Shown: positions 170-23,110 of the stretch, piece after piece | How positions within the stretch are numbered: the stretch's first letter is position 1 | Layout: every line of letters starts with the position of its first letter | Assembly (NCBI GenBank): GCA_030917025.1 | Contig: JAUPVN010000072.1 | Span: 1 to 35,042, forward strand | From: Patescibacteria group bacterium | Lineage (GTDB): Bacteria; Patescibacteriota; Saccharimonadia; Saccharimonadales; CAIOMD01 | Direction: 5' to 3' | DNA: 35,042 bases | Position numbers and translations under genes: made by a program | The notes under the pieces: generated by a model | What the model was told of the DNA's origin: nothing | Seen by the model: the letters and a program-made list of their open reading frames with translations, nothing else | Databases searched by the model: none

Positions 170-742
170 TTATATCTCCATTGGTTTTACATCTTTTAGC
201 ATTGGGTGATTTTGGTCTCTGCTGTTTATTATGGATTTTTCTAACGGAATAGGCCAATTAATGCCAATTTTAGGATCTGACAAATTTACAAAACAATATT
301 TACTATAGTTGTCTGCGCTCCAGTGAGCGCTTACACTGTAAAGATAGTATGTGTCTGGCTCTTGGGTTTGAAAAGAGTTGGCTACGCCCCTTGGTAAAAA
401 AACTGCCGTATTGGGGGTGATTGTAAACGTTTCTACGTTACCAAAGCTACTGCCTTTTCGTAAGTCTACCCAAGCACCAAATACTTTGCCCTTTACTACG
501 GTTATGTACTTTTCCCATGGCTCGGCATGAAAGCCACGCGTAACGCCCGCCTCTTTGTTGTAAGATAAACTATTTTGCACAACATTAAATGAATTTGGCA
601 TGCCGGCCTCTACAAGTTTGGCTTTTTGATATTTTTCTTGAAAAAAGCCTCGTTCATCGTTAACTTGCGATACATCAAAAAATAATAATCCTGGTATAGA
701 TGTTTTGTGGCCTACGTATTGGGTTGTTGCTAAATTTGCCAT
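170..742 (-). CDS. rmlC: dTDP-4-dehydrorhamnose 3,5-epimerase (cupin fold)
   Basis: The 190-aa ORF contains DERGFF, RGFHAEPW and GVANSFQ segments typical of the RmlC family. It lies between rmlB and rmlD on the same strand. Confidence 0.85.
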   Translation of the reverse strand: MANLATTQYVGHKTSIPGLLFFDVSQVNDERGFFQEKYQKAKLVEAGMPNSFNVVQNSLSYNKEAGVTRGFHAEPWEKYITVVKGKVFGAWVDLRKGSSFGNVETFTITPNTAVFLPRGVANSFQTQEPDTYYLYSVSAHWSADNYSKYCFVNLSDPKIGINWPIPLEKSIINSRDQNHPMLKDVKPMEI

Positions 743-746
743 ATAC

Positions 747-1757
<1,011 letters not shown>

Positions 1758-1790
1758 CTATGATTTTGCTATGAGTGGTATTATAGATAA

Positions 1791-2828
1791 ATGATAACTG
1801 TAATTATTGCGGGCGGATCTGGCACTAGGCTGTGGCCCTTATCTACCCAAGATTACCCTAAACACTTGCTTAAACTTACAAATAGTAATAGTTTATTACA
1901 AAATACCGTAAGCCGTGTAGAGCGTTTAACCAAGAAAGATCATATTTTGGTTATAACAGAAGAAAGCCATGTTGAGCATGTTTATAAACAACTAGATAAT
2001 ATTGATAGAAAAAATATTTTGGTTGAACCGGGTAGAAGGGGCACGGCTAGTTGTGTATTAATGGGTTTAAGCCATATAAAAAAATCTGGGCTTCCCCAAG
2101 ACGAGCCAATAATATTTTTGTGGGCTGACCATTTAATAAGAGATAATGAAGGATTCACGGCCAGTGCTTTAAGAGCGGGTGAATTAAGTAAGGGCGAGAA
2201 TAAATTAGTTTTTATAGGCGTAAAACCAACCTATCCTGCAACAGGTTTTAATTATATCAAACAAGATGGCCCCGTTGATGGCTGGTTTCAGACTTTTCAT
2301 TTAGAAAAATTTACTGAAAAGCCCGATAAAAAAACCGCAGAGAAGTATGTTACTAGTGGCAGATATTTATGGAATTCTGGTTATTTAGTGGGGTCTTTAA
2401 GTGTATTTGAAAACGAGATGAAAAGATCTTCTCCCGATTTGTACCAAGATTATCTAAAAGTTTGTGATGATAAAGATTTTATTAATACATATCTTGGTCT
2501 AAAAAGCTTAACTATAGATGAAGCTCTTTCTGAGAAAGTGAAAGATGGTCTTGTTATGCCTGTGACTTTTGATTGGATGGATGTTGGCAGTTTTAGTGAT
2601 TTACACGCCGTGAGTACTACGGATGATTCTGGCAACCATGTTTGGGGTAATAATGTAGAATTAGACAGCACTACTAATAGCTATGTTAGAAATGAAGACA
2701 CAGAACCTGTGGCTGTTATTGGTTTAGATAATATTGTAGTGGTTAATACATCTAATGGTGTTTTGGTTGTTAATAAGAATTATGCTCAAAATGTGGGTGA
2801 GGTAGCAAAAAAAGTTCAATTAAAGTAA
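1791..2828 (+). CDS. NDP-sugar pyrophosphorylase, mannose-1-phosphate guanylyltransferase-like (no C-terminal isomerase/cupin domain)
   Basis: The N-terminus IIAGGSGTRLWPLS...YPKHLL is the ManC-type nucleotidyltransferase signature. The ORF is 345 aa and is followed 13 nt later by a phosphomannomutase-type gene. Confidence 0.8.
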   Translation: MITVIIAGGSGTRLWPLSTQDYPKHLLKLTNSNSLLQNTVSRVERLTKKDHILVITEESHVEHVYKQLDNIDRKNILVEPGRRGTASCVLMGLSHIKKSGLPQDEPIIFLWADHLIRDNEGFTASALRAGELSKGENKLVFIGVKPTYPATGFNYIKQDGPVDGWFQTFHLEKFTEKPDKKTAEKYVTSGRYLWNSGYLVGSLSVFENEMKRSSPDLYQDYLKVCDDKDFINTYLGLKSLTIDEALSEKVKDGLVMPVTFDWMDVGSFSDLHAVSTTDDSGNHVWGNNVELDSTTNSYVRNEDTEPVAVIGLDNIVVVNTSNGVLVVNKNYAQNVGEVAKKVQLK

Positions 2829-2841
2829 AAGGAGGCTATTT

Positions 2842-4194
2842 ATGGCTGATTTTCCGGCTCAAGTTTTTAAATCTTACGATATAAGAGGAAAAGTTGGTAG
2901 TGAACTTAATGAACAGTTGGTGCATGATATTGGCCGAGCTTTTGCTGATTTTTTGCCCACAGAAGGCCCAGTAGCCGTAGGCTACGATATGCGCCCCGAC
3001 AGTAAGGCTTACGCCACAGCTATAATTGCCGGCTTAACAGAGCAAGGACGAGATGTTTGGGATCTTGGTATGATTGCAACCGATATGATTTACTTTGCGG
3101 TAGGTAGCAATAAATTAGCTGGTGGGGCTGTAGTCACAGCTAGCCACAACCCAGGTGAATTTAACGGAATTAAATTATGCAGAGAAGATGCAATACCAGT
3201 AGGCGAATTTAGTGGTTTGTTTGGTATTAGAGATGCCGTAAAAGCACAATCTTTTAAAAACGTATCAAATACCGGTACGGTAGCAAATAAAGATATAGTT
3301 GAGGGCTGGATTGGCCATGTTCTAAGTTTTATAGATACAGCTAAATTAAAGCCCCTAAATATTGCAGTAGATGCCGGCAATGGTATGGCAGGAGAAATTT
3401 TTGCCGAGCTAGAGCCTTATGTACCCTGGCGTGTTAAAGAAATGTATTTTGAGCCAGACGGGACTTTTCCTAACCACGAGGCTAACCCAATGAAATCTGA
3501 AACTTTAGTAGATATAATTAAAGAAATTAAACAGAATAATCTAGATGGCGGAATTGCATTTGATGGCGATGGTGATAGGGCCTTTTTACTAGACGAGACT
3601 GGCAAAGTTATACCCGGTAGTGCTATGTCTGCGCTACTAGCTGATTATTTTGCTGGCTTAAATCCTGGTGCAACCATTATTTACGATGTTAGAAGCAGCA
3701 AATATGTGGCTGAGGTTATTACAGCTGCTGGTGGCAAGCCTTTTAGGACAAAGGTTGGGCATAGCAATATAAAACAAGCTATGCGCGAGCATAATGCACC
3801 ATACGGCGGAGAATCATCTGGACATTTTTATTTTAAAGAAAATTGGTTTGCAGATTCGGGTTTAATTGCGGCTGTTATTGGTTTGTATGTAGCAACCATT
3901 AATAATGTTAAATTATCTGATTTACGTAAAAAATATACCAAATATTTTGCTATAGAAGAAACTAATTTTGTGGTAGAAGATAAAGATGCAAAAATGGAAG
4001 AAATTGTTAATGCGTATCCGTTGGCTGTGTCTGTTGATAGGCTAGATGGAGTGACTTTAACTTTTAAAAACGGTTCATGGATGAATATAAGACCAAGTAA
4101 TACAGAATCTTTGCTAAGGCTTAATGTAGAGGCCGAATCTGAACAAGAACTTGATGCACTTGTGAGTGGTGTATCTGAATATTTTACCAAGTAA
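2842..4194 (+). CDS. Phosphomannomutase/phosphoglucomutase (alpha-D-phosphohexomutase)
   Basis: It has the active-site loop TASHNPGEFNG and the Mg-binding loop FDGDGDR, plus GESSGH. An AAGGAGG Shine-Dalgarno sequence lies just upstream (about 2829-2835). Confidence 0.9.
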   Translation: MADFPAQVFKSYDIRGKVGSELNEQLVHDIGRAFADFLPTEGPVAVGYDMRPDSKAYATAIIAGLTEQGRDVWDLGMIATDMIYFAVGSNKLAGGAVVTASHNPGEFNGIKLCREDAIPVGEFSGLFGIRDAVKAQSFKNVSNTGTVANKDIVEGWIGHVLSFIDTAKLKPLNIAVDAGNGMAGEIFAELEPYVPWRVKEMYFEPDGTFPNHEANPMKSETLVDIIKEIKQNNLDGGIAFDGDGDRAFLLDETGKVIPGSAMSALLADYFAGLNPGATIIYDVRSSKYVAEVITAAGGKPFRTKVGHSNIKQAMREHNAPYGGESSGHFYFKENWFADSGLIAAVIGLYVATINNVKLSDLRKKYTKYFAIEETNFVVEDKDAKMEEIVNAYPLAVSVDRLDGVTLTFKNGSWMNIRPSNTESLLRLNVEAESEQELDALVSGVSEYFTK

Positions 4195-4247: not shown

Positions 4248-7070
4248 TTATTGCTTTGGGGGTGTTTTTAAGGGCAAAAATACGTTAAAGGTGCTGCCTT
4301 TATTTTGCTCTGAAACAAACCAAATGTTACCGCCGCTATAATTTACAATACTTTGTAGTATATATAGCCCCAAGCCGGTACCGTCTGTGTCTATAGTTTT
4401 GGCGTTTTCTGCCCTAAACATTTTAGAGAATATGTGCTTTTGTTGGTTAACCGGTATACCGTAGCCGTTATCTTTAACAGATATTAACACTCCATCTTGC
4501 GGTATTTTATAGCCATCTACAACGTTTTTGCCTGAAACACTACTAACATCTAACCTAATTGTGCCCTTGCTTGGAGTGTATTTTACAGCGTTTGAAAGCA
4601 GGTTTTGATATATCATTTCTAGGTATTTTTGGTCGAACTCTATGCTTGGTAAGTCTTTTGTAAAAGTTACTACAAGGTTTTGCTGTTTTTCTTTTATTTT
4701 TGGTGTTAGTTCATTAATGATTTGTTTAGAAATTTGTTCTAGGTTAAGTACCTGCGTTTTTAAGACAAAAGTGCCAAGTTCTAGGCGTGATACATTTAAT
4801 AGATCATCTACCAGTATAGACATTCTTTTGTTGGCTAGGTAGATTTCGTTTAAATATTGGGTTTGAGATTTGTTTAGTTTGCTTTTTTTATCGCTTAATA
4901 ATATTTCTGTATACCAATTTATAGATGAAAGAGGTGTGCGCAGCTGGTGAGAAGCCAAAGATACAAATTCTGATTTGGCTTGATCTATTTCTTGTTCTTT
5001 AGATATATCTCTAAAAGAACCATACATAATTTCTGGCTGGCCATTTGGCAACCAAGACATTATTTTGCCGTGGTCTTGAACCCATATCCATGTACCATTT
5101 TTATGTTTAAGCCGGTATTTTGCTTTATAAAAGCTAGAGGTATCTTTTATATGATTATTTAATGCATCTTGGTATACGGGCAAGTCATCTGGGTGTATTA
5201 GTTGCTGAATTTTACTAGAATTTACGGGCCCTAGTTCTGCAAGTGTGTAGCCAATAATATTCGCCCAACGTTCATTTATGGTAACTTTATTTGTAATTAT
5301 GTTTAATTCCCACGCCCCAAGATCTGTTCCTTGTATAATGTTTTCTATTTTTTGCTTAGATTTTTCTAATGACATTTCTGCCTCTACGATATCTGTAATG
5401 TTTTCTTCGCTTGCTAAGAAACCTATTATCTTTTTTTGTGAATTTTTAATTGGAGATATTCTGGCCTTAACATAATACACTTCACCCATTTTGTTTCTGT
5501 TGGCAAGTTGGGTATTAATTACATGGCCCTTTTGAGCGTTATCCCATAGGTTTTTGTAAAAATCGTAATCCATTAAACCACCCCAAAGGCGTGGAGATTG
5601 GCCAAGCATTTGGTTAATAGGATAGCCAGTGTTTTGAGCCGCAGCATTATTTGCAAATAAAACGGTGCCGTTAATATCTGTTATTACAATGTGGTTTGGG
5701 CTATCGCTAAAAGATTTAAGTAAAACGTCAAAAGCGCTAATGTTAGATTCTATTGTTTTTTTAGATGTTTGTGTTAATTTAGACATTGCAAAAAATATTA
5801 ACAAAACAACTATAGAATATAGGCTAAATATAATTGGCGAAACAATAGTTTGGCCAAAAATAGTATTAGAATCATTATTTGCAAAAAGTAAAAAGCTAAA
5901 GGCAATTAATATGTATATTAAGCTATTAATTGTGGCTAGTTTTCTGCTAAAGAATAAATACATTAAAGCAACTGGTATTAATAACCAAGGCTCTGCAACC
6001 GTGTTGTTTACATCGTAATATTGGTAGGCTAGCATGGTAACCGCTAGAGCGTTAATAGAAATAAAAACAAGCGCATAGTATTTTTTAGATACTAAATGAG
6101 TAAACAGTATTATTAGCTGAAGTAATAAGTAAAAAATAAGTACCAAGTTGTAATTTGTAGTTAAACTTATGTTTAATACAAAATTTTCTATAAATAATAC
6201 TAAAGAAACACCAAAAATACTAAGTATTAAAAAGTATTTAAAATATTGCATTTTAACTTTATCAAAAAAGTTAGCGCTAAATTGATCTATAGATATTTGC
6301 TTACTTTGCTTATTAAATTTTGATAAGTAGTTTGTTAAGTTAAGTATCTGTTTTTTGTCTGTATTGTTAGGATAAAATTGTTCAAAAACAAAGTTTTTGG
6401 AGCTGTAGCCAGTATCTAACAGAATATTATTTGCGTTTTGTACATAATTTTTTGGTCCGCTAATAAGAATTTTACTGTTTATATTTTTTGGTATGTGGCT
6501 ACTTTTTAATTGTTCGTGGTATACACTTACGGTAATATTTTTATTGTTTTGCTCTAGTTGCTTTAGCTCTTTAACGTAAAGAGTTTCTTTGTACCTTAGG
6601 TTGTAAATTATATAATAATGTTTGTTGGGGTCTGAGTTTTCTTTTAAGATACTTAAAAAGGGCGCTATACCAACCCCCCCCCCCGCTAACATTATTATAT
6701 TGTTATCTGTAAAATTAGATGTTACAAAAGTTGTGCCAAGAGGGCCATAAATTTTTACTTTGTCTCCGGCTTTAAGGCCCAGAAGTATATGTTTATAATG
6801 ACTTTTAGATTTTCTGAGTAGTATAGATATGCTTGTATTGTTTTTGGGGTTACTAATAATAGAAAAAGCTCTCCTATCTATTTCTGGAGAGCTTTTTAAC
6901 TGATTTAATGCTAACCATATGTATTGACCTGCCTTAAACTGCATAGGAGCATTAAGGCCAAATTCTATTTCGTAAGCATCATCACCTAAAGAAGTGATAT
7001 TTTTAAGAGTTGCAGTAAACTCTGTGTTTTTGGATTTATCAGCACAGCTGTTATATTTTTTTGGTTCCAA
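4248..7070 (-). CDS. Multidomain sensor histidine kinase: FNR-like flavin/NAD(P)-binding domain, about 6 TM helices, 2 PAS domains, HisKA, HATPase_c
   Basis: The N-terminal roughly 230 aa carry RAFSI (the RxYS-type FAD motif), GPLG, and LAGGGVGIAPF (the GGxGxxP NAD(P) motif). Six hydrophobic helices follow at about residues 285-460. Two PAS-like segments precede the H-box SHQLRTPL, and N/G-boxes (NAVKYT, DNGYGIP, GTGLGL) complete the kinase. The start is apparently TTG at 7070. Confidence 0.85.
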   Translation of the reverse strand: MEPKKYNSCADKSKNTEFTATLKNITSLGDDAYEIEFGLNAPMQFKAGQYIWLALNQLKSSPEIDRRAFSIISNPKNNTSISILLRKSKSHYKHILLGLKAGDKVKIYGPLGTTFVTSNFTDNNIIMLAGGGVGIAPFLSILKENSDPNKHYYIIYNLRYKETLYVKELKQLEQNNKNITVSVYHEQLKSSHIPKNINSKILISGPKNYVQNANNILLDTGYSSKNFVFEQFYPNNTDKKQILNLTNYLSKFNKQSKQISIDQFSANFFDKVKMQYFKYFLILSIFGVSLVLFIENFVLNISLTTNYNLVLIFYLLLQLIILFTHLVSKKYYALVFISINALAVTMLAYQYYDVNNTVAEPWLLIPVALMYLFFSRKLATINSLIYILIAFSFLLFANNDSNTIFGQTIVSPIIFSLYSIVVLLIFFAMSKLTQTSKKTIESNISAFDVLLKSFSDSPNHIVITDINGTVLFANNAAAQNTGYPINQMLGQSPRLWGGLMDYDFYKNLWDNAQKGHVINTQLANRNKMGEVYYVKARISPIKNSQKKIIGFLASEENITDIVEAEMSLEKSKQKIENIIQGTDLGAWELNIITNKVTINERWANIIGYTLAELGPVNSSKIQQLIHPDDLPVYQDALNNHIKDTSSFYKAKYRLKHKNGTWIWVQDHGKIMSWLPNGQPEIMYGSFRDISKEQEIDQAKSEFVSLASHQLRTPLSSINWYTEILLSDKKSKLNKSQTQYLNEIYLANKRMSILVDDLLNVSRLELGTFVLKTQVLNLEQISKQIINELTPKIKEKQQNLVVTFTKDLPSIEFDQKYLEMIYQNLLSNAVKYTPSKGTIRLDVSSVSGKNVVDGYKIPQDGVLISVKDNGYGIPVNQQKHIFSKMFRAENAKTIDTDGTGLGLYILQSIVNYSGGNIWFVSEQNKGSTFNVFLPLKTPPKQ
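6674..6684. repeat. 11-nt C homopolymer on the plus strand (G11 on the coding strand) inside the kinase ORF
   Basis: Counted directly: caaCCCCCCCCCCCgct. On the minus strand it reads GCG GGG GGG GGG GTT GGT, encoding A-G-G-G-V-G. Confidence 0.95.
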
Positions 7071-7129: not shown

Positions 7130-7594
7130 TTATCTAGTTACGGTAATTGTTTCGCCGTTTTCTGCATCTGGGGCTGCTACGGTTATTCTATTATTGGCAC
7201 TTCTAGAAATTGTATAACCTGCGCCATTAGCAGATGAACCTGTTGGATCTACTGGTATGGATGTTAAGTAGGTTTCATTTGTTGTAAGAACGCTAAGATC
7301 TACTAAGCCTGTGCATGTGGCACCAGTTTTACATATTTCTCCTGGGGTGCCTGCTGTAAGTGCAGAAACGCTAGCAGGTAATGTTCCGTTATTATCTATA
7401 GAATATTGATAAACCGCATTTAGAATTGTTGTAACATCGCTTGAGCGTTGTGCATTTTTACTTTCTGATAGCTGCTTACTTGGGTTAATGGCAAAAATAA
7501 CTATTCCTGCCAAAATTGCAATTATAGCAATTACTAGTAGTATTTCTATTAGCGTAAAGCCAGAATTCTTTTTAGTTAATTTTTTTATAATCAT
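7130..7594 (-). CDS. pilA: Type IV major pilin (prepilin with class III signal peptide)
   Basis: The sequence MIIKKLTKKNSG|FTLIEILLVIAIIAILAGIV has the canonical G|FTLIE cleavage/methylation motif with Glu+5. The ORF is 154 aa and has a C-terminal Cys pair (CKTGATC) typical of the pilin D-region. An AGGAGA Shine-Dalgarno lies upstream. It is the last pilin gene in the operon and is preceded by a 65-nt gap. Confidence 0.8.
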   Translation of the reverse strand: MIIKKLTKKNSGFTLIEILLVIAIIAILAGIVIFAINPSKQLSESKNAQRSSDVTTILNAVYQYSIDNNGTLPASVSALTAGTPGEICKTGATCTGLVDLSVLTTNETYLTSIPVDPTGSSANGAGYTISRSANNRITVAAPDAENGETITVTR

Positions 7595-7659: not shown

Positions 7660-8049
7660 TTAAAAACTATTTACTTGCTGCCAATTGGTTATAAGTATTT
7701 GGGGGCTAAGCTGACCAATGTTTATTTGGAGTCTTTTTGTGGTATTGTTTACGGTTGCCCAAACTTGGACTGTTCTTGTTTGCCCAGAGTTATCTACTAT
7801 AGTATATGAGCAGTTTTGGCCATTGATAGTTGTATTAAAATTTCCGGTTAGGGCATTGTTAGCTTTAATTTCTGCTAAAGACGTTTCTGCACAGCTATCT
7901 ACCAGGGCCTTAGCCTTAGCAGAATCACTAAAATTGCCACTAATTTGCAGGCTTTCTGTACCTTTTAAAATAAGTGAGCTAGCTACCGATGCACTAACTG
8001 CTGCAATTATTAAGACCGTTATTAAAAGTACTGCTCCTTGTTGTTTCAT
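7660..8049 (-). CDS. PilX/ComGG-like pilus-associated protein (hydrophobic N-terminus, no G|FTLIE motif)
   Basis: The N-terminus MKQQGAVLLITVLIIAAVSASVASS is a single hydrophobic segment. The ORF is 129 aa and overlaps the upstream minor pilin gene by 4 nt. Its position and size match PilX_N/ComGG-type components. Confidence 0.5.
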   Translation of the reverse strand: MKQQGAVLLITVLIIAAVSASVASSLILKGTESLQISGNFSDSAKAKALVDSCAETSLAEIKANNALTGNFNTTINGQNCSYTIVDNSGQTRTVQVWATVNNTTKRLQINIGQLSPQILITNWQQVNSF

Positions 8050-8546
8050 AATCTTAAGCTACTCCCACCGTAAAATGTTTTAGAATAATTATAAGATTGC
8101 TTGTTTGAACTATTAATGTAATTTAAGGTAAAAGAATAAGAAATATTGCCAGTTGTGTTTGGCCGGCTTAGGTTTGCAAATTCTAAGTTATTTATTTGTA
8201 TTTTATTATTGTGCATTGGTTGTGGTGAATTTGCCCCCCGAGTTAAATATAGGGTATTTGAGCTTACATTATAAATTGTGGGGTTTAGCGTAGGGTTTAT
8301 ATTTTGTAAGCTTAGGCTGGGCCCAACGTTACCCTGTGTTGGTGAATTGATTGCAGAAGATGATTGGATGCTTTTGTTGATGTTGTCTATAATTATTTCG
8401 CCCTGCTGGTTAACTTCGTTAATAACTTGGTTTTTTATTTGAGATTGAGTTACAAAATAAAATAAACCTATGGCAGAAGCCAAAATAAAGGGTACTATGG
8501 CAATGTATAGTAAAGTTTCTATGAGTGTAAAGCCTTTGTTGTTCAT
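8046..8546 (-). CDS. Minor (pseudo)pilin with prepilin-type N-terminal cleavage/methylation domain
   Basis: The N-terminus is MNNKG|FTLIETLLYIAIVPF. The ORF is 166 aa and lies within the pilus operon. Confidence 0.75.
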   Translation of the reverse strand: MNNKGFTLIETLLYIAIVPFILASAIGLFYFVTQSQIKNQVINEVNQQGEIIIDNINKSIQSSSAINSPTQGNVGPSLSLQNINPTLNPTIYNVSSNTLYLTRGANSPQPMHNNKIQINNLEFANLSRPNTTGNISYSFTLNYINSSNKQSYNYSKTFYGGSSLRL

Positions 8547-8549: not shown

Positions 8550-9986
8550 TTATTGTGGTTTTAATATTAACATTTCTTGCGTGGTGGGATCTCCAACTAT
8601 AACGGCTCTGTTTAAGCTACTAGAGTAGGCCACTCCAGCGTAGGTATTTGCGGTAGGAGTGTTGTATGTGCCAAAAATAACCGGTGCAGAAGTGTTGGAT
8701 ATGTTAATTGTTTGAAATTCTGCCACATTACCGCTATTTGCTAAAAATAATACATCGGGGCTTTGAGCAATGTTTAAAGCTATATCATTTATGATTCCAC
8801 CATTGCCAATAGACACATTACCTAGTGCAGATGGAGATAGGGGGTTAGTTATGTCATATATGTAAAGTAAGTTAGATTGCCCAATAAATAAATTATTGTT
8901 GTTATGAGATATTGTTAGGGCGTTATTGGTGCCCGGTAAATTAATGCTACTTGCAAGCGTTGGTGCCGCTGGGTTGCTAACATTAACTATTTTAACCTCT
9001 TGAGTGTCTGAGGAAGAAGATACATAGGCATAATTGGGTATAACGGTTACCTCATAGGCTAAGCCGGTTAAATTGGTTGGCCCAAGATTTACTATACCAG
9101 AAAGCGTTGGTGCCGCTGGATTGGTAATGTTTATAACCGCTAATTGGCTGGTAGAAGCACTTATGGCAAGATAGACATAATTGCCTAATTTATATACGCC
9201 TCTGGCATCGTTATTACCACTGTTATTAAAGCTCCCCGTAAGCGTTGATGCCGCTGGGTTAGTTATGTTAATAATTTGTAATTCTTGCGTGTTAGAGCTA
9301 GAAGCTACGTATGCATATGAGCCGTCTATAAAAATGTTAGTTGGGTTGCCATTTAAAGATAAAGTCTGGACTAAGGTTGGGCTAGCAGGATTAGTAATAT
9401 TATAAACTAAGAAGTTTTGGGAGCCCCTGTTAATTACTACAAATGCGTAGTTACCGCTTATTTGGACCTTTAACCCGGCTTTTATATTTGGAAAATCAAC
9501 GGCTGAGTCTAGCCCTGGGTTACTCCAAGATAAATTAACTACTATATTAATATCGCGCCAGTTTGTTAGCCGCCCAACTAAATTAAACACACCCGTGCGT
9601 TGAAGATTTTGTTGCCAGTTAACGCTTATATTAACTTCTTTTGTTGTAGGGTTTACGGTACTTAATGTTACCGTTCTGGTAAAATTATTTTGCACGTCTG
9701 GAGTGTTGGGCACTAGCTGCCATTGGCCACTATTTTGCTGTAGGCCATATGCGCCATCTGCTAAGCTGCTAAAAGCCTGATAATTACTATCTTTAATATT
9801 TTTTACTGCTTCTAGACCTTGTTCTGCAATTTGGGTAGCCTGAGTTCTTTTGGCGCTAATGATTGAACTTTCTGTACCGTAAAAAATAGCCCCTACAATG
9901 CCAGATATCACAATTATTAGTAAGCTAGAAGCCAACAAAACTTCTATTAAAGTAAAGCCGCTACTGTTTGAAGATTTAGTTTTCAT
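8550..9986 (-). CDS. Minor pilin fused to an LVIVD-repeat beta-propeller (putative pilus-tip adhesin)
   Basis: The prepilin N-terminus is MKTKSSNSSG|FTLIEVLL, followed by a pilin-like domain of about 150 aa. Six to seven repeats of 45-50 aa follow, of the form gnYAYVasss..qeL.IiNItNPaaPTL.g. This pattern matches the LVIVD repeat family. Confidence 0.75.
   Translation of the reverse strand: MKTKSSNSSGFTLIEVLLASSLLIIVISGIVGAIFYGTESSIISAKRTQATQIAEQGLEAVKNIKDSNYQAFSSLADGAYGLQQNSGQWQLVPNTPDVQNNFTRTVTLSTVNPTTKEVNISVNWQQNLQRTGVFNLVGRLTNWRDINIVVNLSWSNPGLDSAVDFPNIKAGLKVQISGNYAFVVINRGSQNFLVYNITNPASPTLVQTLSLNGNPTNIFIDGSYAYVASSSNTQELQIINITNPAASTLTGSFNNSGNNDARGVYKLGNYVYLAISASTSQLAVINITNPAAPTLSGIVNLGPTNLTGLAYEVTVIPNYAYVSSSSDTQEVKIVNVSNPAAPTLASSINLPGTNNALTISHNNNNLFIGQSNLLYIYDITNPLSPSALGNVSIGNGGIINDIALNIAQSPDVLFLANSGNVAEFQTINISNTSAPVIFGTYNTPTANTYAGVAYSSSLNRAVIVGDPTTQEMLILKPQ
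8956..9257. repeat. DNA-level periodic repeat underlying the LVIVD blades
   Basis: AGCGTTGGTGCCGCTGG occurs at 8956-8972 and again at 9103-9119. A one-mismatch copy, AGCGTTGATGCCGCTGG, occurs at 9241-9257. All encode PAAPTL or PAASTL on the minus strand, with spacing of 147 and 138 nt. Confidence 0.85.
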
Positions 9987-10432
9987 TAGTAGTTTATTAC
10001 TCCGTTGCTACTTATATTTATAGTAAGATTTTGGCCAGATACATTAGATAATGTTACAGAACCAGGCACAACGGGCAAGCCAGTAACTTTTGCAAAAGAA
10101 AAATCGCTTAAGCCACTATAGGTTATATTTGGGGATATTTTAGATATTTGATCGTAAGATTGATCTCTGCTATTAAAATTATTACCTTTAAACAAAATTA
10201 TTTGTGATTGTTCTATTTTTACGCTCCAGGCGTCATCCTGGCTAGATAAGCGTGCTTTAATTTGTGCGTTTCTGGCATCGTTTACAAATGTAGAAACAGC
10301 AATATTTAGATCGTTTTTTGTTTGTGTGCTGCTATAAACAGATATAGATAAACCACTAAGCAAGGCAATTAAACTAATAACAAGCATTAACTCTATTAAA
10401 GTAAAGCCTTTATTGTTTTTTACGCATACCAT
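9986..10432 (-). CDS. Minor pilin, GspH/FimT-like prepilin
   Basis: The N-terminus is MVCVKNNKG|FTLIELMLVISLIALLSG. The ORF is 148 aa. Its stop overlaps the start of the next gene (TAATG at 9984-9988). Confidence 0.7.
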   Translation of the reverse strand: MVCVKNNKGFTLIELMLVISLIALLSGLSISVYSSTQTKNDLNIAVSTFVNDARNAQIKARLSSQDDAWSVKIEQSQIILFKGNNFNSRDQSYDQISKISPNITYSGLSDFSFAKVTGLPVVPGSVTLSNVSGQNLTINISSNGVINY

Positions 10433-11521
10433 TTATATATCGTTAAGATTACTTATAAGAGAATATATAGGTAAAATTATTGCTAACGCCAATACAACAA
10501 CAATTAGCCAAACGCTAATTAGTAGTATGGGCTCTAAAATTACCGAAAGATTTTTAGAGGTTGTGTCTACCTTTTCTTCGTATACTTTAGAGATTTGCAA
10601 AAATGATTTAGATAAATAGCCAGACTTTTCGCCCGTTGTGATTAAAGATCTTACTGTATTGGGCAATAATTTAGTTTTTTTATTTTTGGTGGATAGTAGA
10701 GTTTTAAAGCTTTCGCCCTGGGTTATTCCGTTTTCTAGGTATGAATACAGCTTTTTAAAAGCTCTATCGTTGGTTGATTCTTGCAAAGAGATAAAAACCA
10801 TTTCTATTGGTAGGCCGGCTTCTAGTAGAGTTCCGGCAATGTAACCCATTCGGGAAATTTCTATTTCTTTAACTAGTTTGTTAATGCCCGGGGCTTTTCT
10901 TATTATTTTAAAAACAAAATCACGAAATATTTTAACCCAAACTATTAAAATAAAAAATAGTAATGACATAACTAGGGTGAATATAAGTATTGTATATTTG
11001 TTATCTTGAATAAAATCTCCTAAGCTAATTAGGATTCTTGTTGGTAGGGGCAATTCTACGTTCATACCGCTAAATATAGTAGTTAGTCTTGGTAATATAA
11101 ACCAAGCAATAGTTAAGCCAACAACAATAGCAAGACCAAGTACCAAACTTGGGTAAAGCATGGCAGACTGTATGTGCGATTTAAACAGGCGATTTTTTTG
11201 GAGTTGTTTAGCCGCTAGATCTAGGTTTTCGCTTAATCTGCCGCTGTCTTCTCCACTTTTAATTAGTATTACCGTTGATACACTGTAAATACCACTTTTA
11301 TCTATTGCTTTCCAAAACGGTATGCCCTCTGATATTTGATTAATAATTTTTAAAATTGCTTTTTTAAGTTTTGGTGATTTTATATCATCTACAAAAGAAG
11401 ATAGGGCAGAATTTAAAGACGCCCCTGAGTCTACAAGCATGGCTAAATTTTCTAGTAATGTTTCGGCCTCTTTACCAAACCCAAATTTTTTTTTGCCAAT
11501 GATTTTGTCTTTGTTATTCAT
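10433..11521 (-). CDS. pilC: Type IV pilus platform protein (GspF/PilC family)
   Basis: The 362-aa ORF has two T2SS-F-like repeats separated by TM helices. Its coordinates directly abut pilB (11522) and the next pilin gene (10432). Confidence 0.88.
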   Translation of the reverse strand: MNNKDKIIGKKKFGFGKEAETLLENLAMLVDSGASLNSALSSFVDDIKSPKLKKAILKIINQISEGIPFWKAIDKSGIYSVSTVILIKSGEDSGRLSENLDLAAKQLQKNRLFKSHIQSAMLYPSLVLGLAIVVGLTIAWFILPRLTTIFSGMNVELPLPTRILISLGDFIQDNKYTILIFTLVMSLLFFILIVWVKIFRDFVFKIIRKAPGINKLVKEIEISRMGYIAGTLLEAGLPIEMVFISLQESTNDRAFKKLYSYLENGITQGESFKTLLSTKNKKTKLLPNTVRSLITTGEKSGYLSKSFLQISKVYEEKVDTTSKNLSVILEPILLISVWLIVVVLALAIILPIYSLISNLNDI

Positions 11522-13207
11522 TTAGGTTTTACTATTAAATATAGTTGGTACGGGTGATACTCTTAGTAGTTCTTCTATTGTAGTATAGCCTTGGCTAACT
11601 TTTTGGATACCGTCTTCAAAGAGGGTTTTACTGTTGGTTTTGTAGGCTACTTCCCATATTTCGTTTTTGGATGGTTTTTTAAGAATAAGTTCTTTTAGTT
11701 CGTCATTTAATACAATAAATTCGTAAATTCCTATTCTGCCCTTATAGCCGGTATTATTGCATATTTTGCAACCCTTACCTTTGTAGATATTAGTTTTTGA
11801 TTTGCTTAATAAGTTTTTAAGCAGGGTGGCAGATTGTTTGTCTAGATTATGATCTGCAGAAAGTGATTCTATGTTTAAGTCTGTGCTTATTCTGCAAGAT
11901 TGGCATAATTTTCTAAGTAAGCGCTGCGCAACAACAAGTTCTAGTGTAGATGCTAATAAAAATGGCTCTGTACCAAGTTCTAACAAGCGTGGGATTGCGG
12001 TTGCGGCATCGTTTGAGTGAAAAGTTGTTAGCATTAAATGGCCCGTTAAAGCTGCATTAACAGAAATTTCTGCTGTTGCTAGATCTCTTATTTCTCCTAC
12101 TAAAATTACGTCTGGGTCTTGTCTTACAATAGACCTTAAGCCCTCACTAAAAGTAAAATTTGTTTGTGGGTCTACCTGCATTTGGGCAATACCCGGAATA
12201 ACGTATTCTACTGGGTCTTCTATGGTGGTAATATTTATACCTCTGTTTTTAATAAATTTTATTAAAGAATACAGAGTTGTAGTTTTACCAGAGCCCGTAG
12301 GCCCTGTTACTACTATCATTCCAAAAGGTTTTTTACCTGCAGTTTCTATAATTTGTTTGTGTTCTTGGCTTAGGCCTAAATCGTTTAGGGTAAATTCTGC
12401 ATTATGTGATGTTAGTAACCGTATTACGATTTTTTCGCCGCTTACTGTTGGTGCAATTGAAATACGCATATCTATTGAGCCAGTGGATTCGTGATCAAAA
12501 TGTACAGAACCGTCTTGCACGGTGTTGTGTTCGTCTATTCTAAGACTAGCCATAACTTTTATTCTGTTGATTACATTTTGGTAAAGATTAGTATCTATGT
12601 TTCCGGCATCTTGTAGTACACCATCTACGCGGATTCTAATTGTTACACTATTTGGCTCTGGTTCAAAGTGAACATCAGATGCACGCATTGCAGCAGCATC
12701 AATTATTATGGCTTCTATAATATCTGGGGCTACTTTAGAGCCAGATTTAATAATTTCGTTAAATCGTGTATCTAATGATTCTCTATAATCTATAAGGGCT
12801 TCGTCTATTTCGGCCGGCAACGCGTAACGGAGCTCTATTTTACGATTGTTAAATATGGTTTTTAAACTGTCTTTTAAGTCTGGGTTATTTGGTTTATCTG
12901 TAGCAATTATAACCTTGCCCTTTTCTATTTGGTAAACAACTACTCTGTATTTTTGGGCAAATTCTTTTGGGACTAAGCTAATTTCTTGGGGGGTTGGTTG
13001 ATGAGCATTAAAATCAGCAATAGCAAGATTGTATTTTTCTGCTACAGCCATAGCAATAATATCTTCGCTAATTAGGTTATTTTCTTTTAAATAGTCTGTT
13101 ATATTAGTACGAGCTTTGCTACTTTCTTGCCACGCCTTAACTGCCTCATCTTTGCTAAGGTAGTTTTCGTTTACGAGTAGTTCTAGTAGTTCTTTTTCTT
13201 CTTGCAT
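11522..13207 (-). CDS. pilB: Type IV pilus assembly ATPase (GspE/PilB family) with N-terminal T2SSE_N domain
   Basis: It has Walker A GPTGSGKTT, Walker B/Asp box DVILVGEIRD and His box TGHLMLTTFH. A tetracysteine motif CQSC...CKIC is present. The ORF is 561 aa. Confidence 0.92.
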   Translation of the reverse strand: MQEEKELLELLVNENYLSKDEAVKAWQESSKARTNITDYLKENNLISEDIIAMAVAEKYNLAIADFNAHQPTPQEISLVPKEFAQKYRVVVYQIEKGKVIIATDKPNNPDLKDSLKTIFNNRKIELRYALPAEIDEALIDYRESLDTRFNEIIKSGSKVAPDIIEAIIIDAAAMRASDVHFEPEPNSVTIRIRVDGVLQDAGNIDTNLYQNVINRIKVMASLRIDEHNTVQDGSVHFDHESTGSIDMRISIAPTVSGEKIVIRLLTSHNAEFTLNDLGLSQEHKQIIETAGKKPFGMIVVTGPTGSGKTTTLYSLIKFIKNRGINITTIEDPVEYVIPGIAQMQVDPQTNFTFSEGLRSIVRQDPDVILVGEIRDLATAEISVNAALTGHLMLTTFHSNDAATAIPRLLELGTEPFLLASTLELVVAQRLLRKLCQSCRISTDLNIESLSADHNLDKQSATLLKNLLSKSKTNIYKGKGCKICNNTGYKGRIGIYEFIVLNDELKELILKKPSKNEIWEVAYKTNSKTLFEDGIQKVSQGYTTIEELLRVSPVPTIFNSKT

Positions 13208-13280: not shown

Positions 13281-13646
13281 TTAAATATACGTTTGAATTT
13301 TTAAGATTAGTTCTGCTAAAGATGTGTCTGATTTAATAAAAAAGTCTTTAACCCCAAAGTTGGTTGTTTTTATTTTATCTTCTTCTTGTGAAAGGTTGCT
13401 CATAACAATAACAGGTGTTTTATTTTTAGATATTTTCATATTTTGTAAAACGTTAAAACCATCTGATACGGGCATAATTAAGTCTAATAATAAAAGATCA
13501 TATTTATTATTTTTTAAGTATTGTATGGCCTGATCGCCATCGTTTGCAACCGTAACTACGTATCCAGCATTAGAGAGCTTAAGCTCCATGGCATGTGCTA
13601 GGGGTTTTTCGTCTTCTGCTATTAATATTTTTTTGCTAGGTTTCAC
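13281..13646 (-). CDS. Single-domain response regulator (CheY-like receiver only)
   Basis: The 121-aa ORF has the acidic pocket AEDE, the phospho-acceptor context LLLLDLIMP, and conserved S and K positions (VMSNL, FFIKS). There is no output domain. The start is apparently GTG at 13646. Confidence 0.9.
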   Translation of the reverse strand: MKPSKKILIAEDEKPLAHAMELKLSNAGYVVTVANDGDQAIQYLKNNKYDLLLLDLIMPVSDGFNVLQNMKISKNKTPVIVMSNLSQEEDKIKTTNFGVKDFFIKSDTSLAELILKIQTYI

Positions 13647-13793: not shown

Positions 13794-16040
13794 ATGAATA
13801 CATCTAAACATCTTGGTTGCAGCTACTGGTTTGAACTGTACTTGATGCAGGACATTTATAGCCAAGCAGACTGGCAAAAGACTATACTTTCTGTATCGCA
13901 ATATATTGGTTTTATGCGTAATTGGCAGTTGATTATGCGTGTAGAAAACAGCACTGTTAGGTATTTTGTTGGCGCAAATAGTGATTTAGGTATGCTGTCT
14001 AACAATTTACAAGGAGTGGTTTTAAGACCAATTGCCGCCAATATAGTATCGCCCCCTAAAAATCCTAAACATGAAGGTTTAATAAGGTTGGTTACCGGTG
14101 GTAGTGCGCTAGATTTAAGAGAAAAATACATTGTAAAACGTGGTAAAGAGCTTGATTGGATAGTATTTTCTATTAGAACTATTAATGTAGAAAAAGCTTA
14201 CTGCAAAGCATCTTTTTATTTTAAGCTTGCCAACAACAGCTATAGCATGGCAAAAAAATTATTAATCGTTCCGCCAAGTATGTTATTAAAGGTTGATTTT
14301 GTACAAAATACTAAGTACTTACGTAAAAAACAACCAAAATACTTAGATATTCAAAAATCTCTACATATTATGCGTAGCGATGAGGTTGGCGCACTATTTG
14401 AGGTTGACACATTCCCGTATTTACCAAAAAATTATTATTTGCCCCTAGAAAGTTATGATTTTGATAAACACTCATTTATTATTGGCGCTAGTGGTAGCGG
14501 AAAGTCTAAATTAATTGACTTATTTATTAACCAGTTATTGTCTGATAGTATGAACCGGCAATCTTACAGGGTAATTGTAATTGATCCACACGCTTCTTTA
14601 GAAGATGATTTAGATAGTATACAGGGCAGTAACGTTATTAGATTTAAGGGCAGCGATGATGGCGCAGAACTGTTTGCTGGGGCTGGTACGGATATCTCTG
14701 CCGCAACCGAACTTACGGGCACGTTATTTAAATCTTTAATGGCAGATCAGTTTAACCCCAAGTTAGAGCGCGTCATGCGCTTTAGCCTGTTTGTTTTAAT
14801 GACGGCTCAAGTAATGTCTTTAGATAATTTAAAACGTTTTGTAACAGATATAGAATATCGTAATGCTTTATTAGACCATGTTAAGGGCTTTGTACCTGAT
14901 AATATTGTTAATTTTTTTGGATCAGATTTTAACGAGCTTAGAACAAAACATTATACAGAGGCAATATCGCCAATAGTTGCATTGGTAGAAGAAATGCAAA
15001 TGCAGCCATCTTTGGGTGAACAAAACGATAACGCTGCTTCTTTGCAGCGCCTTATTAGTGATTCGCCACTAACCGTTTTTTCTTTAAATAAAGTTAGTAT
15101 GGGCGAAAAGGTAGTAAAAACTGTTGCTGGTTTGCTAATTCAGCAAATATTTTTGCTGGCACAGGCGCATAGCTTTAACCAAAAAGTTATTTTAATAGTA
15201 GATGAAGTATCTGTTGTGCAAAATCCTGCTTTAGCGCAAATATTAGCAGAGGCACGTAAATATAATTTATATGTATTCTTAACTCAGCAGTATTTTGGCC
15301 AGATAGAAAAGGGCTTGCAAGACGCAATTTTTACTAATGTTTCTAATTATTATGCCTTTAGGGTATCAGAAGAAGACGCAAGGGCACTTGAGGGTAATTT
15401 AACTATAGAGTTACCCAAAGAAACTTTGTTAGAGGGTAAAGAAATTGGTAATAAAGAACAAGAAATTAGAGTGAGGATATTAACATCGCTTAATAGCCGA
15501 GAGTGTTTATTACGTTTAAGTAAAGATGGCCAAATTTTGCCATGCGTTAAGGCCCGCACCATGGATTTTACGGCCCCCAAAAGAATGCAAAATGACGATT
15601 TGCGTAAGGCTGCAATGGAAGATTTGCCCCAAAAATTTAAAGAAAAAGTGCAAACTCAACATTCTTTAAATATGGTAGAAGATGTAAATAGTAAGCTTGA
15701 AAAGTTTGCGGGGGAATCTGGGCAAAAAACCGCTAATAATGTAGAACGGCCTGCGTTAAAGCCTAAAGCTCAAGAAATATCTCCAGAAAAGTTTACCCAG
15801 CTTGGGCATGTTGCTGCTCCTGCGTACTTAACTAAACCTGTTACGTCTTTTGATTCTGCAAAAATGGATTTAGTATCATTAAATTCAATTGGTCCTAGTA
15901 GTTTTAATAATGGCACAAATGTAATAGCAACACAAAACACTTCTGTTTTAAACAGTAATGGTAGCCAAAAAGCCCCAACCCTAGAAGAATTTTTATCGCA
16001 GCAATCAACAAATTTTAATATTAATGAAAGGGAAATCTAA
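13794..16040 (+). CDS. HerA/FtsK/VirD4-superfamily P-loop NTPase with an uncharacterised N-domain and a roughly 170-aa low-complexity C-terminal tail
   Basis: It has Walker [11 protein letters not shown] followed by [10 protein letters not shown] (HerA/VirB4-like DPHGEY context). Walker B is ILIVDEVS, followed by [13 protein letters not shown]. No N-terminal TM helices are visible. The exact subfamily cannot be assigned by eye. Confidence 0.6.
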
Positions 16041-16041
16041 C

Positions 16042-16740
16042 ATGGATGATAAACAAGCAAAAAATATATTAGATAAAGTTGTGGGCGCAGTATTTGGGTT
16101 TCAGAATCCGTTTAGTTTAGACCAAGCTATGCAAAAGTTTGCCTTTGATTATAAATTGCCTCAGCAAGTCTTTGATTCTGTTACCAGTGAGCCAACTTGG
16201 GCAACATCTACTAACCCAACAAGTTTTATGAAATTAGAGAATTTACGCAAACGCAGTGAACAGACGGACTGGATGGAGCCCCAGGAGCCCCTAAACAGTA
16301 TAGAAGATATTATTACAGCTTGGTCTAAAACTCGTTACATGACAACGGAAAGGCAAATTGACTCTATAAACGTGGGGCAAAGTGATACTGTTTATGGATG
16401 TGAAAATGTTTATAGAAGTTGTGATGTTACTAATTGTAAAAATATTATTTTTTGCGCTACCGTAAAAGACAGCGAATATATTGTGGCGGGTACCAGGTCT
16501 CAAACTTCTAGTTTTTGCATAAGGTTAGAAGATAGTCAGTTATGTTCTAATAGTTTTAATGTAAATTGGTCTGCTAAGGTTACTAATTGTTATTTCATTC
16601 AGGATTGTTATGACATTAGTGATTGTATGTTTTGCTCGCATATTTCTGGTAAGCGCTTTTGCATTGCCAATATGCAGTTTTCTGAAGAAGAGTATAAGCG
16701 TCTTAAAGAACTTGTTATTCGTTGGGTTTTAACTTCTTAG
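16042..16740 (+). CDS. Uncharacterised Cys-rich repeat protein (11 Cys in the last roughly 90 aa, roughly hexad spacing)
   Basis: The ORF-track start at 16024 lies inside the upstream gene. ATG at 16042 follows that gene's TAA (16038-16040) and an AAGGGA Shine-Dalgarno-like sequence. The C-terminal half reads GCENVYRSCDVTNCKNIIFC...NCYFIQDCYDISDCMFCSHISGKRFCIANMQF. I do not recognise a named family. Confidence 0.55.
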   Translation: MDDKQAKNILDKVVGAVFGFQNPFSLDQAMQKFAFDYKLPQQVFDSVTSEPTWATSTNPTSFMKLENLRKRSEQTDWMEPQEPLNSIEDIITAWSKTRYMTTERQIDSINVGQSDTVYGCENVYRSCDVTNCKNIIFCATVKDSEYIVAGTRSQTSSFCIRLEDSQLCSNSFNVNWSAKVTNCYFIQDCYDISDCMFCSHISGKRFCIANMQFSEEEYKRLKELVIRWVLTS

Positions 16741-17851
16741 AGTTTTTGACTGTTTTTTTAATTTTGGTTTTAAATTCTTTAACCGCAAATTTTTGAGAGC
16801 TTTTACTAATTGCGGTATGATCCCACTTTTTTGCTAGGCATTTTTGGATAGCTTGTTCTAGCTCTAGTGTGCTTTGATTTTGGTAAAATACTCCGTTTCT
16901 GTTGGTAATATAATCTTTGGCGCCGCCTTTTTGTAATGCCACAACTGGCGTGCCAGCCGCTAGCGCTTCTACTGGGGCAACTCCAAAATCTTCAAAGCTG
17001 GCAAAAACAAATGCTTTGGCGCCTGAAACGCGTTTAGCAACTTCTTCATCTGAGGCGTTTGTAATAAACTGTACCGTAAGCCCAGCTTTAATTTGTAATT
17101 TTGCAAGTTCTGGGCCCTTGCCAATTATTGTTAATGGGTAATGGTTATTATTACAAACTTCTACTATAGAGTCTACGTGTTTCATGGGGACTAATCTGCC
17201 CACGGTAATTACCCCTTTTCTGTTTTTATTGGCTGTATTTTTTTGTGTAAAAAGTGTGGTATTAACAGGCGGAAAAATAACTTGCGCATCTTTATTATAA
17301 TACTGTTTTATATCTGCCTGGATGTGAGTTGAATTAGCTATAAAAATATCTACTTTTTGCGCGGCTTTATAATCTAGCCTTCTTAGGGGGCCGGCAAAAA
17401 TTAATAAACCCAAGCGTGCAATTGGGTTAAATATACCAAAACCGGGCCTTTTCATATATTTTTTGTAATGGCGCCATAAAAAATGCACAGGTGTGTGGCA
17501 ATAGCATATTAAAGTTGCGTTTCCTTTTTTTACCGCCTTGGCTTGGCCATTTCCTGCACTGGCAATTATTACATCGTATTTTTTTAACCTTAATGACCTA
17601 AACCACCAGTACTGTAAAAGTGGTAAATATTTACGAAACTTACCAAGGTGCTGTAAATAGCCCGTAACAACCTTATTATCTAATTTATTGCGCCATTCTT
17701 TTGTACAATAGCTGGTATATATTGGGGCATCTGGGTATAGCTGGTGTAATGCTTGCACCACTCTTTCGGCCCCGCCCCCAACAAGCCAGTCGTGTACTAT
17801 GGCTACCTTTTGGCTAGATACTTGGTTATTTAGTGGCTTGGGTTTACTCAT
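16715..17851 (-). CDS. Glycosyltransferase family 4 (GT-B, Glycos_transf_1)
   Basis: It has the ExxxxxxxE-type C-terminal motif (EDFGVAPVEALAAGTPVVA). The ORF is 378 aa. Its 3' end overlaps the convergent gene by 26 nt. Confidence 0.87.
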   Translation of the reverse strand: MSKPKPLNNQVSSQKVAIVHDWLVGGGAERVVQALHQLYPDAPIYTSYCTKEWRNKLDNKVVTGYLQHLGKFRKYLPLLQYWWFRSLRLKKYDVIIASAGNGQAKAVKKGNATLICYCHTPVHFLWRHYKKYMKRPGFGIFNPIARLGLLIFAGPLRRLDYKAAQKVDIFIANSTHIQADIKQYYNKDAQVIFPPVNTTLFTQKNTANKNRKGVITVGRLVPMKHVDSIVEVCNNNHYPLTIIGKGPELAKLQIKAGLTVQFITNASDEEVAKRVSGAKAFVFASFEDFGVAPVEALAAGTPVVALQKGGAKDYITNRNGVFYQNQSTLELEQAIQKCLAKKWDHTAISKSSQKFAVKEFKTKIKKTVKNSKKLKPNE

Positions 17852-17867
17852 TATTTATTCTTAATAT

Positions 17868-19301: not shown

Positions 19302-19320
19302 GATAGTTTAAATTACCTTC

Positions 19321-23014: not shown

Positions 23015-23089
23015 TCGGGAGTAGCTCAATGGTGGAGCAAGAAGCTGTTAACTTCGAGGTTGCCGGTTCGAGTCCGGCCTCCCGAGCCA
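23015..23089 (+). tRNA. tRNA-Asn (anticodon GTT), CCA encoded
   Basis: The cloverleaf was folded by hand. Acceptor stem: TCGGGAG/CTCCCGA. D-stem: GCTC/GAGC. Anticodon loop: CTGTTAA, with GTT at 23047-23049. T-arm: GCCGG-TTCGAGT-CCGGC. Discriminator G is followed by CCA at 23087-23089. Confidence 0.93.
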
Positions 23090-23110
23090 GACCCAGCAGA
23101 GAAATAGGTA

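Follow-up and report, generated by a model that had tools for sequence, protein, structure and literature searches.

How the ultrasmall Patescibacteria find and hold their hosts is largely unknown, and type IV pili, which have been linked to host binding in cultivated Saccharibacteria, are among the few surface machines that these bacteria conserve. The locus described here raises the question of whether one of their pilins could itself carry the module that makes contact. We analyzed a stretch of 35,042 nucleotides (the window; contig JAUPVN010000072.1 of assembly GCA_030917025.1), in which a minus-strand open reading frame (ORF) at 8550..9986 had been described in an earlier note as a prepilin fused to a beta-propeller built of LVIVD repeats. 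Our analysis supports the interpretation of its product, hereafter the pilin-LVIVD protein, as a type IV minor pilin of modular build whose binding module is predicted to be displayed at the pilus tip, a principle that is already established. Taken as a whole, the reading that we favor on balance is that of a tip-located minor pilin presenting an exchangeable binding module.

Architecture, fold and conservation of the fusion

The ORF, for which the earlier note gave no strand, begins with ATG on the minus strand, encodes 478 residues and divides into a class III signal, a pilin module and a series of LVIVD repeats, an architecture about which we have almost no doubt. The translation starts with MKTKSSNSSG/FTLIEVLL, the slash marking the predicted processing site. 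The leader peptide (residues 1-10; minus strand, 9957..9986) ends in Gly at position -1, and the pilin module that follows (residues 11-145, about 135 residues; minus strand, 9552..9956), to which we also refer as the carrier, has Phe at +1 and Glu at +5 and closes with a conserved T-N-W motif. A linker (residues 146-157; minus strand, 9516..9551) leads into the LVIVD region (residues 158-478, approximately 320 residues; minus strand, 8553..9515). In an alignment of 84 full-length homologues (A1), the signal is retained with Gly-1 in 79 sequences, Phe+1 in 76, Ser or Thr at +2 in 81 and Glu+5 in all 84. The protein contains no Cys and a single His.

Profile searches with Pfam identified both parts. 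The LVIVD family (PF08309) matched over four stretches at an E value of 1.3e-23 and 82.4 bits (gathering score 20.2), and Beta_propel (PF09826) matched at 26.6 bits against a cutoff of 22.4. The N_methyl family (PF07963) passed barely, at 21.4 bits against a cutoff of 21.2, and reached 22.8 bits for the isolated pilin module; the NCBIfam model TIGR02532 was missed (13.6 against 16.3). The repeats are tandem copies of approximately 42-46 residues starting at residues 171, 215, 260, 310, 356 and 399, and a shorter one begins at 449, which makes six full repeats and one partial repeat; seven units are found by eye as well as in the structural model. At the DNA level, the 17-mer AGCGTTGGTGCCGCTGG, which encodes PAAPTL on the minus strand, is present at 8956, 9103 and 9241 with 0, 0 and 1 mismatch and spacings of 147 and 138 nucleotides, three copies where 0.01 would be expected by chance. 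These copies (8956-8972, 9103-9119 and 9241-9257, coding for PAAPTL or PAASTL) belong to blades 2-4, and such short conserved cores are the sole trace of the repeats in the DNA; Tandem Repeats Finder reported nothing for the gene because the repeat units are otherwise too diverged at this level. Promoter and terminator scans gave matches at chance level only.

A beta-propeller is said to have been predicted for LVIVD repeats since the work of Adindla and colleagues in 2004. An AlphaFold2 model based on alignment A1 had a mean predicted local distance difference test score (pLDDT) of 92 and a predicted template-modeling score (pTM) of 0.74. The pilin part is predicted to form the lollipop shape of a pilin, with a long helix (alpha1, residues 13-67) and a five-stranded antiparallel sheet (residues 78-141), at a pLDDT of about 90. 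Residues 146-148 of the linker are the only stretch of the protein with a pLDDT below 50. The C-terminal part is predicted to contain 28 beta-strands between residues 158 and 476, which fall into seven sets of four and have pLDDT values mostly above 90. In the list of strands, the partial seventh repeat supplies three strands and the isolated strand at 158-163 is the obvious fourth, and the ring is therefore probably closed by a 1+3 'velcro' arrangement of this first strand with the last three (449-476). A Foldseek search of the PDB returned hundreds of seven-bladed propellers with a probability of 1.0 and E values down to 1e-11. The best match was the phosphotriesterase Sb-PTE (5hrm; E 1.3e-11, 11% identity, root-mean-square deviation 6.3 Å), followed by WD40 proteins with target-normalized TM-scores of up to 0.83. 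The modeled fold is confirmed by these matches as a propeller of seven blades; by itself it is not informative on the ligand. The signal and methylation site, the six-plus-one repeats and the spaced 17-mers had all been read from the letters in the earlier note and are borne out here, as are the family assignments to LVIVD and, marginally, N_methyl that it had proposed to check, and its estimate of six or seven blades is narrowed by the model to exactly seven four-stranded ones.

A potential concern with a protein of this kind is whether the fusion is real or an artefact of gene annotation. A protein identical to the pilin-LVIVD protein is annotated as hypothetical in a metagenome-assembled genome (MAG) of Candidatus Saccharibacteria; 17 contigs, drawn from several assemblies, encode it, and the gene context is unchanged in every one of them. 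Among 8000 candidates scored in a homologue search, 561 proteins matched at an E value of 1e-3 or better; the best 120 of these are mostly 445-485 residues long, align over 97-100% of the query with identities of 33-48% and in a few cases bear the JGI name 'Tfp pilus assembly protein PilV'. We also scanned one genome per GTDB species, using a query built from 8 closer sequences, which yielded 105 confirmed relatives; 79 retained loci from other species were compared. In 53 of the 79 the match begins at the N-terminus, and all 53 have a gene context of the Patescibacteria type. The labels of the MAGs concerned include Saccharibacteria, Uhrbacteria, Staskawiczbacteria, Taylorbacteria, Moranibacteria, Parcubacteria, Gracilibacteria, Dojkabacteria, Woesebacteria, Paceibacterota, Portnoybacteria and Peribacteria. 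The other 26 loci lack an N-terminal match. One of them (L056) still lies inside a pilus operon and another (L086) has a GspJ-like pilin and a major pilin as neighbors; the remaining 24, labeled as various phyla outside the Candidate Phyla Radiation (CPR) and including one archaeal locus, match only over residues ~145-478 and lack pilus genes in their vicinity. In none of the relatives compared is the G/F(S/T)xxE segment located on a separate ORF, the arrangement that according to the earlier note would have refuted the fusion. These comparisons indicate that the fusion is genuine rather than an annotation artefact and that it is kept across Patescibacteria, in which full-length homologues number in the hundreds.

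Eight loci with the full Patescibacteria-type operon and a pilin-LVIVD gene (L010, L015, L022, L027, L045, L049, L052 and L053) come from MAGs labeled Gammaproteobacteria or Bdellovibrionales. These labels are probably wrong, because the operon context is identical.

Operon position and exchange of the C-terminal module

The pilin-LVIVD gene sits among minor pilin genes beside those for the PilB ATPase and the PilC platform protein, so that the association with a pilus expected in the earlier note is supported by its neighbors. On the minus strand the tightly packed operon runs from a response regulator through PilB, PilC and a 148-residue pilin to the pilin-LVIVD gene, and on to a 166-residue pilin, a 129-residue pilin-like protein and a 154-residue pilin. 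The response regulator (13281..13646, minus; Response_reg, 82 bits) consists of a single domain and lies immediately upstream of PilB (11522..13207, minus; T2SSE at 399 bits, plus MshEN), which abuts PilC (10433..11521, minus; T2SSF, 145 bits). PilC in turn abuts the first minor pilin, of the GspH/ComGD/FimU-like type (9986..10432, minus; GspH at E 1.1e-11 and ComGD at E 5.2e-10, sub-cutoff; N_methyl at 31 bits), whose stop codon overlaps the start codon of the pilin-LVIVD gene by 1 nucleotide. A ComGF/GspJ-like minor pilin gene (8046..8546, minus; NCBIfam ComGF at E 3.5e-5, sub-cutoff) begins 3 nucleotides past the pilin-LVIVD stop codon and is overlapped by 4 nucleotides by the gene for the 129-residue GspK/PilX-like protein (7660..8049, minus), which is without Glu+5 and matches its families weakly (T2SS_GspK at E 4.9e-4, PilX_N at E 0.016). 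A spacer of 65 nucleotides with an AGGAG ribosome-binding site precedes the gene for the probable major pilin (7130..7594, minus; N_methyl at 34 bits, GspG/ComGC-like). The pilin-LVIVD protein is the largest pilin of this core operon. Among the 53 full-length loci, the H-like pilin is found upstream in 49, the J-like pilin downstream in 50, both in 48, and PilC upstream as well in 46. The response regulator precedes PilB in 32 of the 53 related Patescibacteria loci (including within L008-L056), which suggests a conserved regulation of the pilus.

Minor pilin genes have a canonical H-I-J-K order, as gspH-I-J-K in type II secretion systems, fimU-pilV-pilW-pilX in type IVa pili and comGD-GE-GF-GG in Com pili. 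From its position between the H-like and J-like pilins, we conclude that the pilin-LVIVD protein is likely to fill the I slot (the GspI/PilV/ComGE position) of an H-I-J-K set conserved across Patescibacteria. When the pilin modules of 23 family members were compared with NCBIfam, the best votes went to I-class models (ComGE 20, XpsI 13, GspI 6, PilV 4), all of them below cutoff; the scores were 22.5-25.1 against 49 for ComGE, 14.8 against 44.35 for GspI and 15 against 52.2 for PilV. Because every curated threshold was missed, we do not file the protein as a member of any of these families. It also departs from the known I subunits in size and make-up, as these lack any additional domain and are smaller than all other minor pilins. 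The isolated pilin module was modeled at a pLDDT of 87 and gave no significant Foldseek match in the PDB; the only pseudopilin among its best 50 matches was EpsI, the Vibrio GspI (2ret_C), at a non-significant E value of 0.14, a probability of 0.91 and a target-normalized TM-score of 0.54. A PDB profile search with the module returned only weak and probably spurious matches, to the LT-IIB B chain and to geopilin N-termini. The first of these, between the pilin head (9690-9848, residues 47-99) and the B chain of heat-labile enterotoxin IIB, had an E value of 0.016, and the Pfam LT-IIB family likewise appeared in 3 of the 23 family members at E<0.01, sub-threshold and probably spurious.

To follow the carrier apart from its propeller, a profile of the pilin module (A3) was searched against 1.84 billion cluster representatives, giving 15,742 matches at E<=1e-3, 3,576 at E<=1e-10 and 625 at E<=1e-30. 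The C-terminal modules were classified in the best 150 matches, all at E<=3e-47. A single full LVIVD propeller is present in 49 of these, more than one propeller's worth in 3, and partial arrangements or fragments in 12; a further 19 are shorter than 230 residues, end in the linker and are probably fragments from contig ends. The other 67 are at least 230 residues long and have no LVIVD repeats. Their largest group (46) carries an unannotated domain of ~130 residues in at least one copy, sometimes followed by fn3 and Kelch domains, and a second group (9) carries an unannotated region of ~440 residues; single representatives have a ConA-like lectin domain (Laminin_G_3) with DUF2341, or a TNF/BclA_C-like domain. 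For the lectin variant and a 277-residue variant the gene context was checked, and both occupy the same slot as the pilin-LVIVD gene, in the order PilB, PilC, a pilin of ~150 residues, the variant and two small downstream ORFs. In the most similar mixed pair (P0151 and P0199), the carriers are 67% identical over 138 residues and homology ends exactly at T/V-N-W, past which one protein continues into an unknown repeat domain and the other into LVIVD repeats. These data provide sequence evidence that the C-terminal module has been exchanged in situ, at a fixed junction and within one operon slot.

The ~130-residue domain (P0151, P0162, P0123 and 43 other representatives; also L089 and L090) is the commonest partner of the carrier other than LVIVD. 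It has no match in Pfam and occurs as a single copy in proteins of 270-290 residues or in repeats. It could be the 'beta-jelly-roll-like' module reported for PilX1 of Nanosynbacter lyticus TM7x.

A neighbor-joining tree of the carrier modules with a parsimony test of module interleaving required 51 changes, compared with 55 for shuffled labels. We do not rely on this test, because the clustering of the library at 50% full-length identity deflates similarity within a module type, and base the argument on the breakpoint in the pairwise comparison above.

A broader and rather doubtful proposal is that the I-slot pilin serves as a universal carrier of interchangeable host-recognition modules (LVIVD, lectin, Kelch, TNF-like and unknown) recombined at T-N-W, much as phages swap their receptor-binding proteins. 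If so, the type of module would set which host an episymbiont attaches to, and LVIVD would be the commonest cassette.

Directly downstream of the major pilin gene, a 940-residue histidine kinase (4248-7070, minus; 12917-15738 in L001) has a FAD_binding_6-like N-terminus, membrane segments and PAS domains; in one other assembly (GCA_030917505) this gene is split into two calls of 134 and 667 residues. Divergent from the operon (13794-16740, plus) lie the overlapping ORFs for a 748-residue HerA/TrwB-like P-loop ATPase and for a 238-residue protein without a family match. A few kilobases from the operon (16715-20730, minus) lie genes for a GT4 glycosyltransferase, an initiating sugar transferase (Bac_transf) and an O-antigen-ligase-like Wzy_C protein. 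Wzy_C is also a domain of pilin O-oligosaccharyltransferases, and these three genes might glycosylate the pilins. At 170-4194, Pfam annotations of identical contigs list a dTDP-sugar isomerase, an epimerase/dehydratase, an NTP-transferase and a phosphomannomutase/phosphoglucomutase, which indicates synthesis of a rhamnose-type envelope sugar near the pilus locus. Farther away, the stretch at 23015-31000 has a GC content of 0.43-0.45, compared with about 0.35 elsewhere, with the rise beginning right after a tRNA-Asn gene (23015-23089). It encodes a P-type ATPase (23630-25642), a DUF305 protein (26061-26747), a large serine recombinase (27468-28751), an ArsP permease (29222-30202) and an ArsR regulator (30404-30814), and looks like a metal-resistance island integrated at the tRNA gene; no clean flanking direct repeat of this stretch was found.

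Proposed role at the pilus tip

We propose the following role for the pilin-LVIVD protein. A prepilin peptidase would cleave it after Gly10, and the carrier would then join the H-, J- and K-like subunits in a complex that primes pilus polymerization. Such a priming role would leave the protein at the tip of the pilus, a location that we consider likely. There the acidic propeller would be displayed on its short flexible linker and would bind a ligand on a host cell or other surface, probably a glycan or a protein rather than DNA; this adhesive role is the part of the proposal that we favor only narrowly. The propeller would act in cis as the non-pilin PilY1 acts in trans in diderm type IVa pili. 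The alternative modules found in the same slot are of binding-type folds (lectin, Kelch, fn3 and TNF-like) and not enzymes.

We examined how sequence variation is distributed over the protein. Across the family, mean pairwise identity is 42.7% for the propeller and 48.0% for the carrier, and blades 5-7 are the most variable, with 36-37% mean identity against 47-54% in blades 1-2. In a comparison of six close relatives (78-100% identity), variable columns make up 42% of the propeller and 29% of the carrier (Fisher p=0.005). The variability among close relatives and between blades suggests that a portion of the propeller has diversified to some extent, and our preferred reading of the ligand is a fairly conserved class of envelope ligand.

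Several observations weigh against this proposal. The nearly invariant residues of the propeller are the repeat-structural G, Y, A, P, E and L, so that no binding site can be pointed to. Family-wide the divergence of the propeller exceeds that of the carrier by little, whereas a receptor binder with strict host specificity should have diverged further. The best 50 Foldseek matches of the protein include no adhesin, lectin or PilY1, only generic propellers. The assignment to the I class draws on sub-threshold profile matches, a non-significant Foldseek match (E 0.14) and gene order. Finally, no gene for a prepilin peptidase, PilT or PilM/N/O is found inside the 35-kb window.

Two other explanations have to be weighed, each of which we consider improbable. 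The first takes the propeller as a purely structural or priming element that binds no ligand and instead stabilizes or caps the H-I-J-K initiation complex, or opposes retraction as proposed for PilY1. The location of the gene in the core operon, its distribution across the CPR at about 40% identity, a propeller conservation near that of the carrier and the structural nature of the conserved propeller residues all fit this explanation. A specific fit to the J and K subunits is nevertheless hard to reconcile with the free replacement of the module by unrelated folds (lectin, Kelch, TNF-like), and the loss of PilX2, a propeller-bearing minor pilin of TM7x considered below, does not abolish filaments. 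According to the second explanation, which we regard as no more probable than the first, the prepilin-like N-terminus is simply a membrane or pseudopilus anchor that holds the propeller at the envelope rather than on an extended filament. LVIVD and choice-of-anchor modules do occur with many different anchors, the relatives outside the CPR match the propeller part only and lack pilus neighbors, and PilT was not seen in the window. A simple anchor would not account for the invariance of E+5, the retention of the full pilin head fold or the fixed position in the H-I-J-K set beside PilB/PilC and the major pilin.

A role as the DNA receptor of a competence-type pilus, with the propeller capturing extracellular DNA in analogy to ComZ or ComP, is very improbable. 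It is prompted by the pilins of the operon, whose best sub-threshold profile votes are for the competence pilins ComGD, ComGE and ComGF, and by the dependence on scavenged nucleotides attributed to CPR bacteria. DNA capture is disfavored because the propeller is acidic, as it is in 99% of the family (median pI about 4, median net charge -15; pI 4.5 and charge -6 in the query), and no DNA-binding motif was found. We give equally little weight to a catalytic module at the tip, such as a hydrolase acting on the host envelope: the top Foldseek match is the seven-bladed phosphotriesterase 5hrm, which the profile also touches weakly in sequence (E 0.56), but at 11% identity and 6.3 Å, with the other matches being non-enzymatic WD40 propellers, and catalysis is disfavored because Cys is absent from the protein, His occurs only once and the nearly invariant propeller residues are repeat-structural, with no invariant cluster of catalytic-type polar residues.

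Comparison with known systems

The earlier note knew of no characterized pilin-LVIVD fusion. The fusion is indeed uncharacterized, and a full-text literature search for LVIVD and pilin together found no paper discussing it; its novelty had been overestimated, since the architecture is already catalogued and another propeller-bearing minor pilin, PilX2, has been studied genetically. In an InterPro search, Raynaud et al. (2021, PNAS; PMC8179133) list in their Dataset S1 seven architectures that combine IPR012902 with IPR013211, in 30 proteins, and they describe a Falkowbacteria pilin with 12 LVIVD copies, a motif 'of unknown function'. IPR013211 is the LVIVD repeat, and the two signatures and their order are as in the pilin-LVIVD protein. 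The catalogue is a list and says nothing on the fold, the place in the operon, the class of subunit or the distribution over taxa. Our analysis adds the count of seven blades, the conservation of the fusion throughout Patescibacteria, the probable assignment to the I slot and the in situ exchange of modules at a fixed junction.

The repeat family PF08309 is shared with the LVIVD-repeat or choice-of-anchor B surface proteins, which are likewise displayed on the surface by variable anchors. These proteins have Sec signals with other anchors, unlike the pilin-LVIVD protein, which scores 35.6 bits with the NCBIfam model for choice-of-anchor B proteins (TIGR04312) against a cutoff of 100. We know of no LVIVD protein for which a ligand has been established. 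A parallel in arrangement is PilY1/PilC of diderm type IVa pili, where the tip combines a beta-propeller with the FimU-PilV-PilW-PilX (H-I-J-K) minor pilins, all encoded in one operon. PilY1 is not a pilin and has a propeller family of its own (IPR008707), whereas the propeller described here belongs to the same polypeptide as a pilin. We rejected the possibility that the pilin-LVIVD protein is a PilY1 homologue: Pfam gave no PilY1/Neisseria_PilC match at E<=1, none appeared in the Foldseek top 50, and the protein is itself a pilin. PilY1 is at most a functional analogue.

A published counterpart comes from Nanosynbacter lyticus TM7x, whose minor pilin PilX2 ends in a seven-bladed propeller; deletion of PilX2 roughly halves host binding and does not abolish filaments (Grossman et al., ISME J 2025; PMC11623550/PMC12206443). 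The same authors propose it as a tip adhesin and liken it to PilY1; its propeller is reported to be of the RCC1 type, it has no predicted PilD signal, and its gene lies in the pilin-only locus of the second pilus system. The pilin-LVIVD protein shares with PilX2 the combination of a Saccharibacteria minor pilin and a C-terminal seven-bladed propeller, and differs from its published description in the LVIVD type of the propeller, the canonical G/FTLIE signal and the location in the core PilB-PilC operon. An RCC1 propeller pilin of the PilX2 type was rejected, as Pfam gave no RCC1 match and the canonical signal is present.

The pilin-LVIVD family is a concrete candidate for the point of contact with the host, being phylum-wide and probably located at the tip, and its exchangeable C-terminal module makes questions of host range accessible to testing. 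Because modular pilins and a tip propeller are established and the architecture was already catalogued, the gain is limited to a well-defined candidate and a comparative pattern, in organisms that are uncultured, rather than a new kind of system.

The same principle is seen in Streptococcus sanguinis, where the modular minor pilins PilB (vWA) and PilC (ConA-like lectin) form a tip complex with demonstrated adhesion to proteins and glycans (PMC8179133, PMC9934059). As in the pilin-LVIVD protein, a module is grafted onto a pilin carrier, although the folds of the modules differ. The I-like PilA of S. sanguinis is not modular and presents PilB and PilC, whereas in the family described here the I-slot subunit itself appears to be modular. 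The carrier-plus-effector design that Raynaud et al. (PMC8179133) proposed for modular pilins matches this family, in which it is bound to one operon slot.

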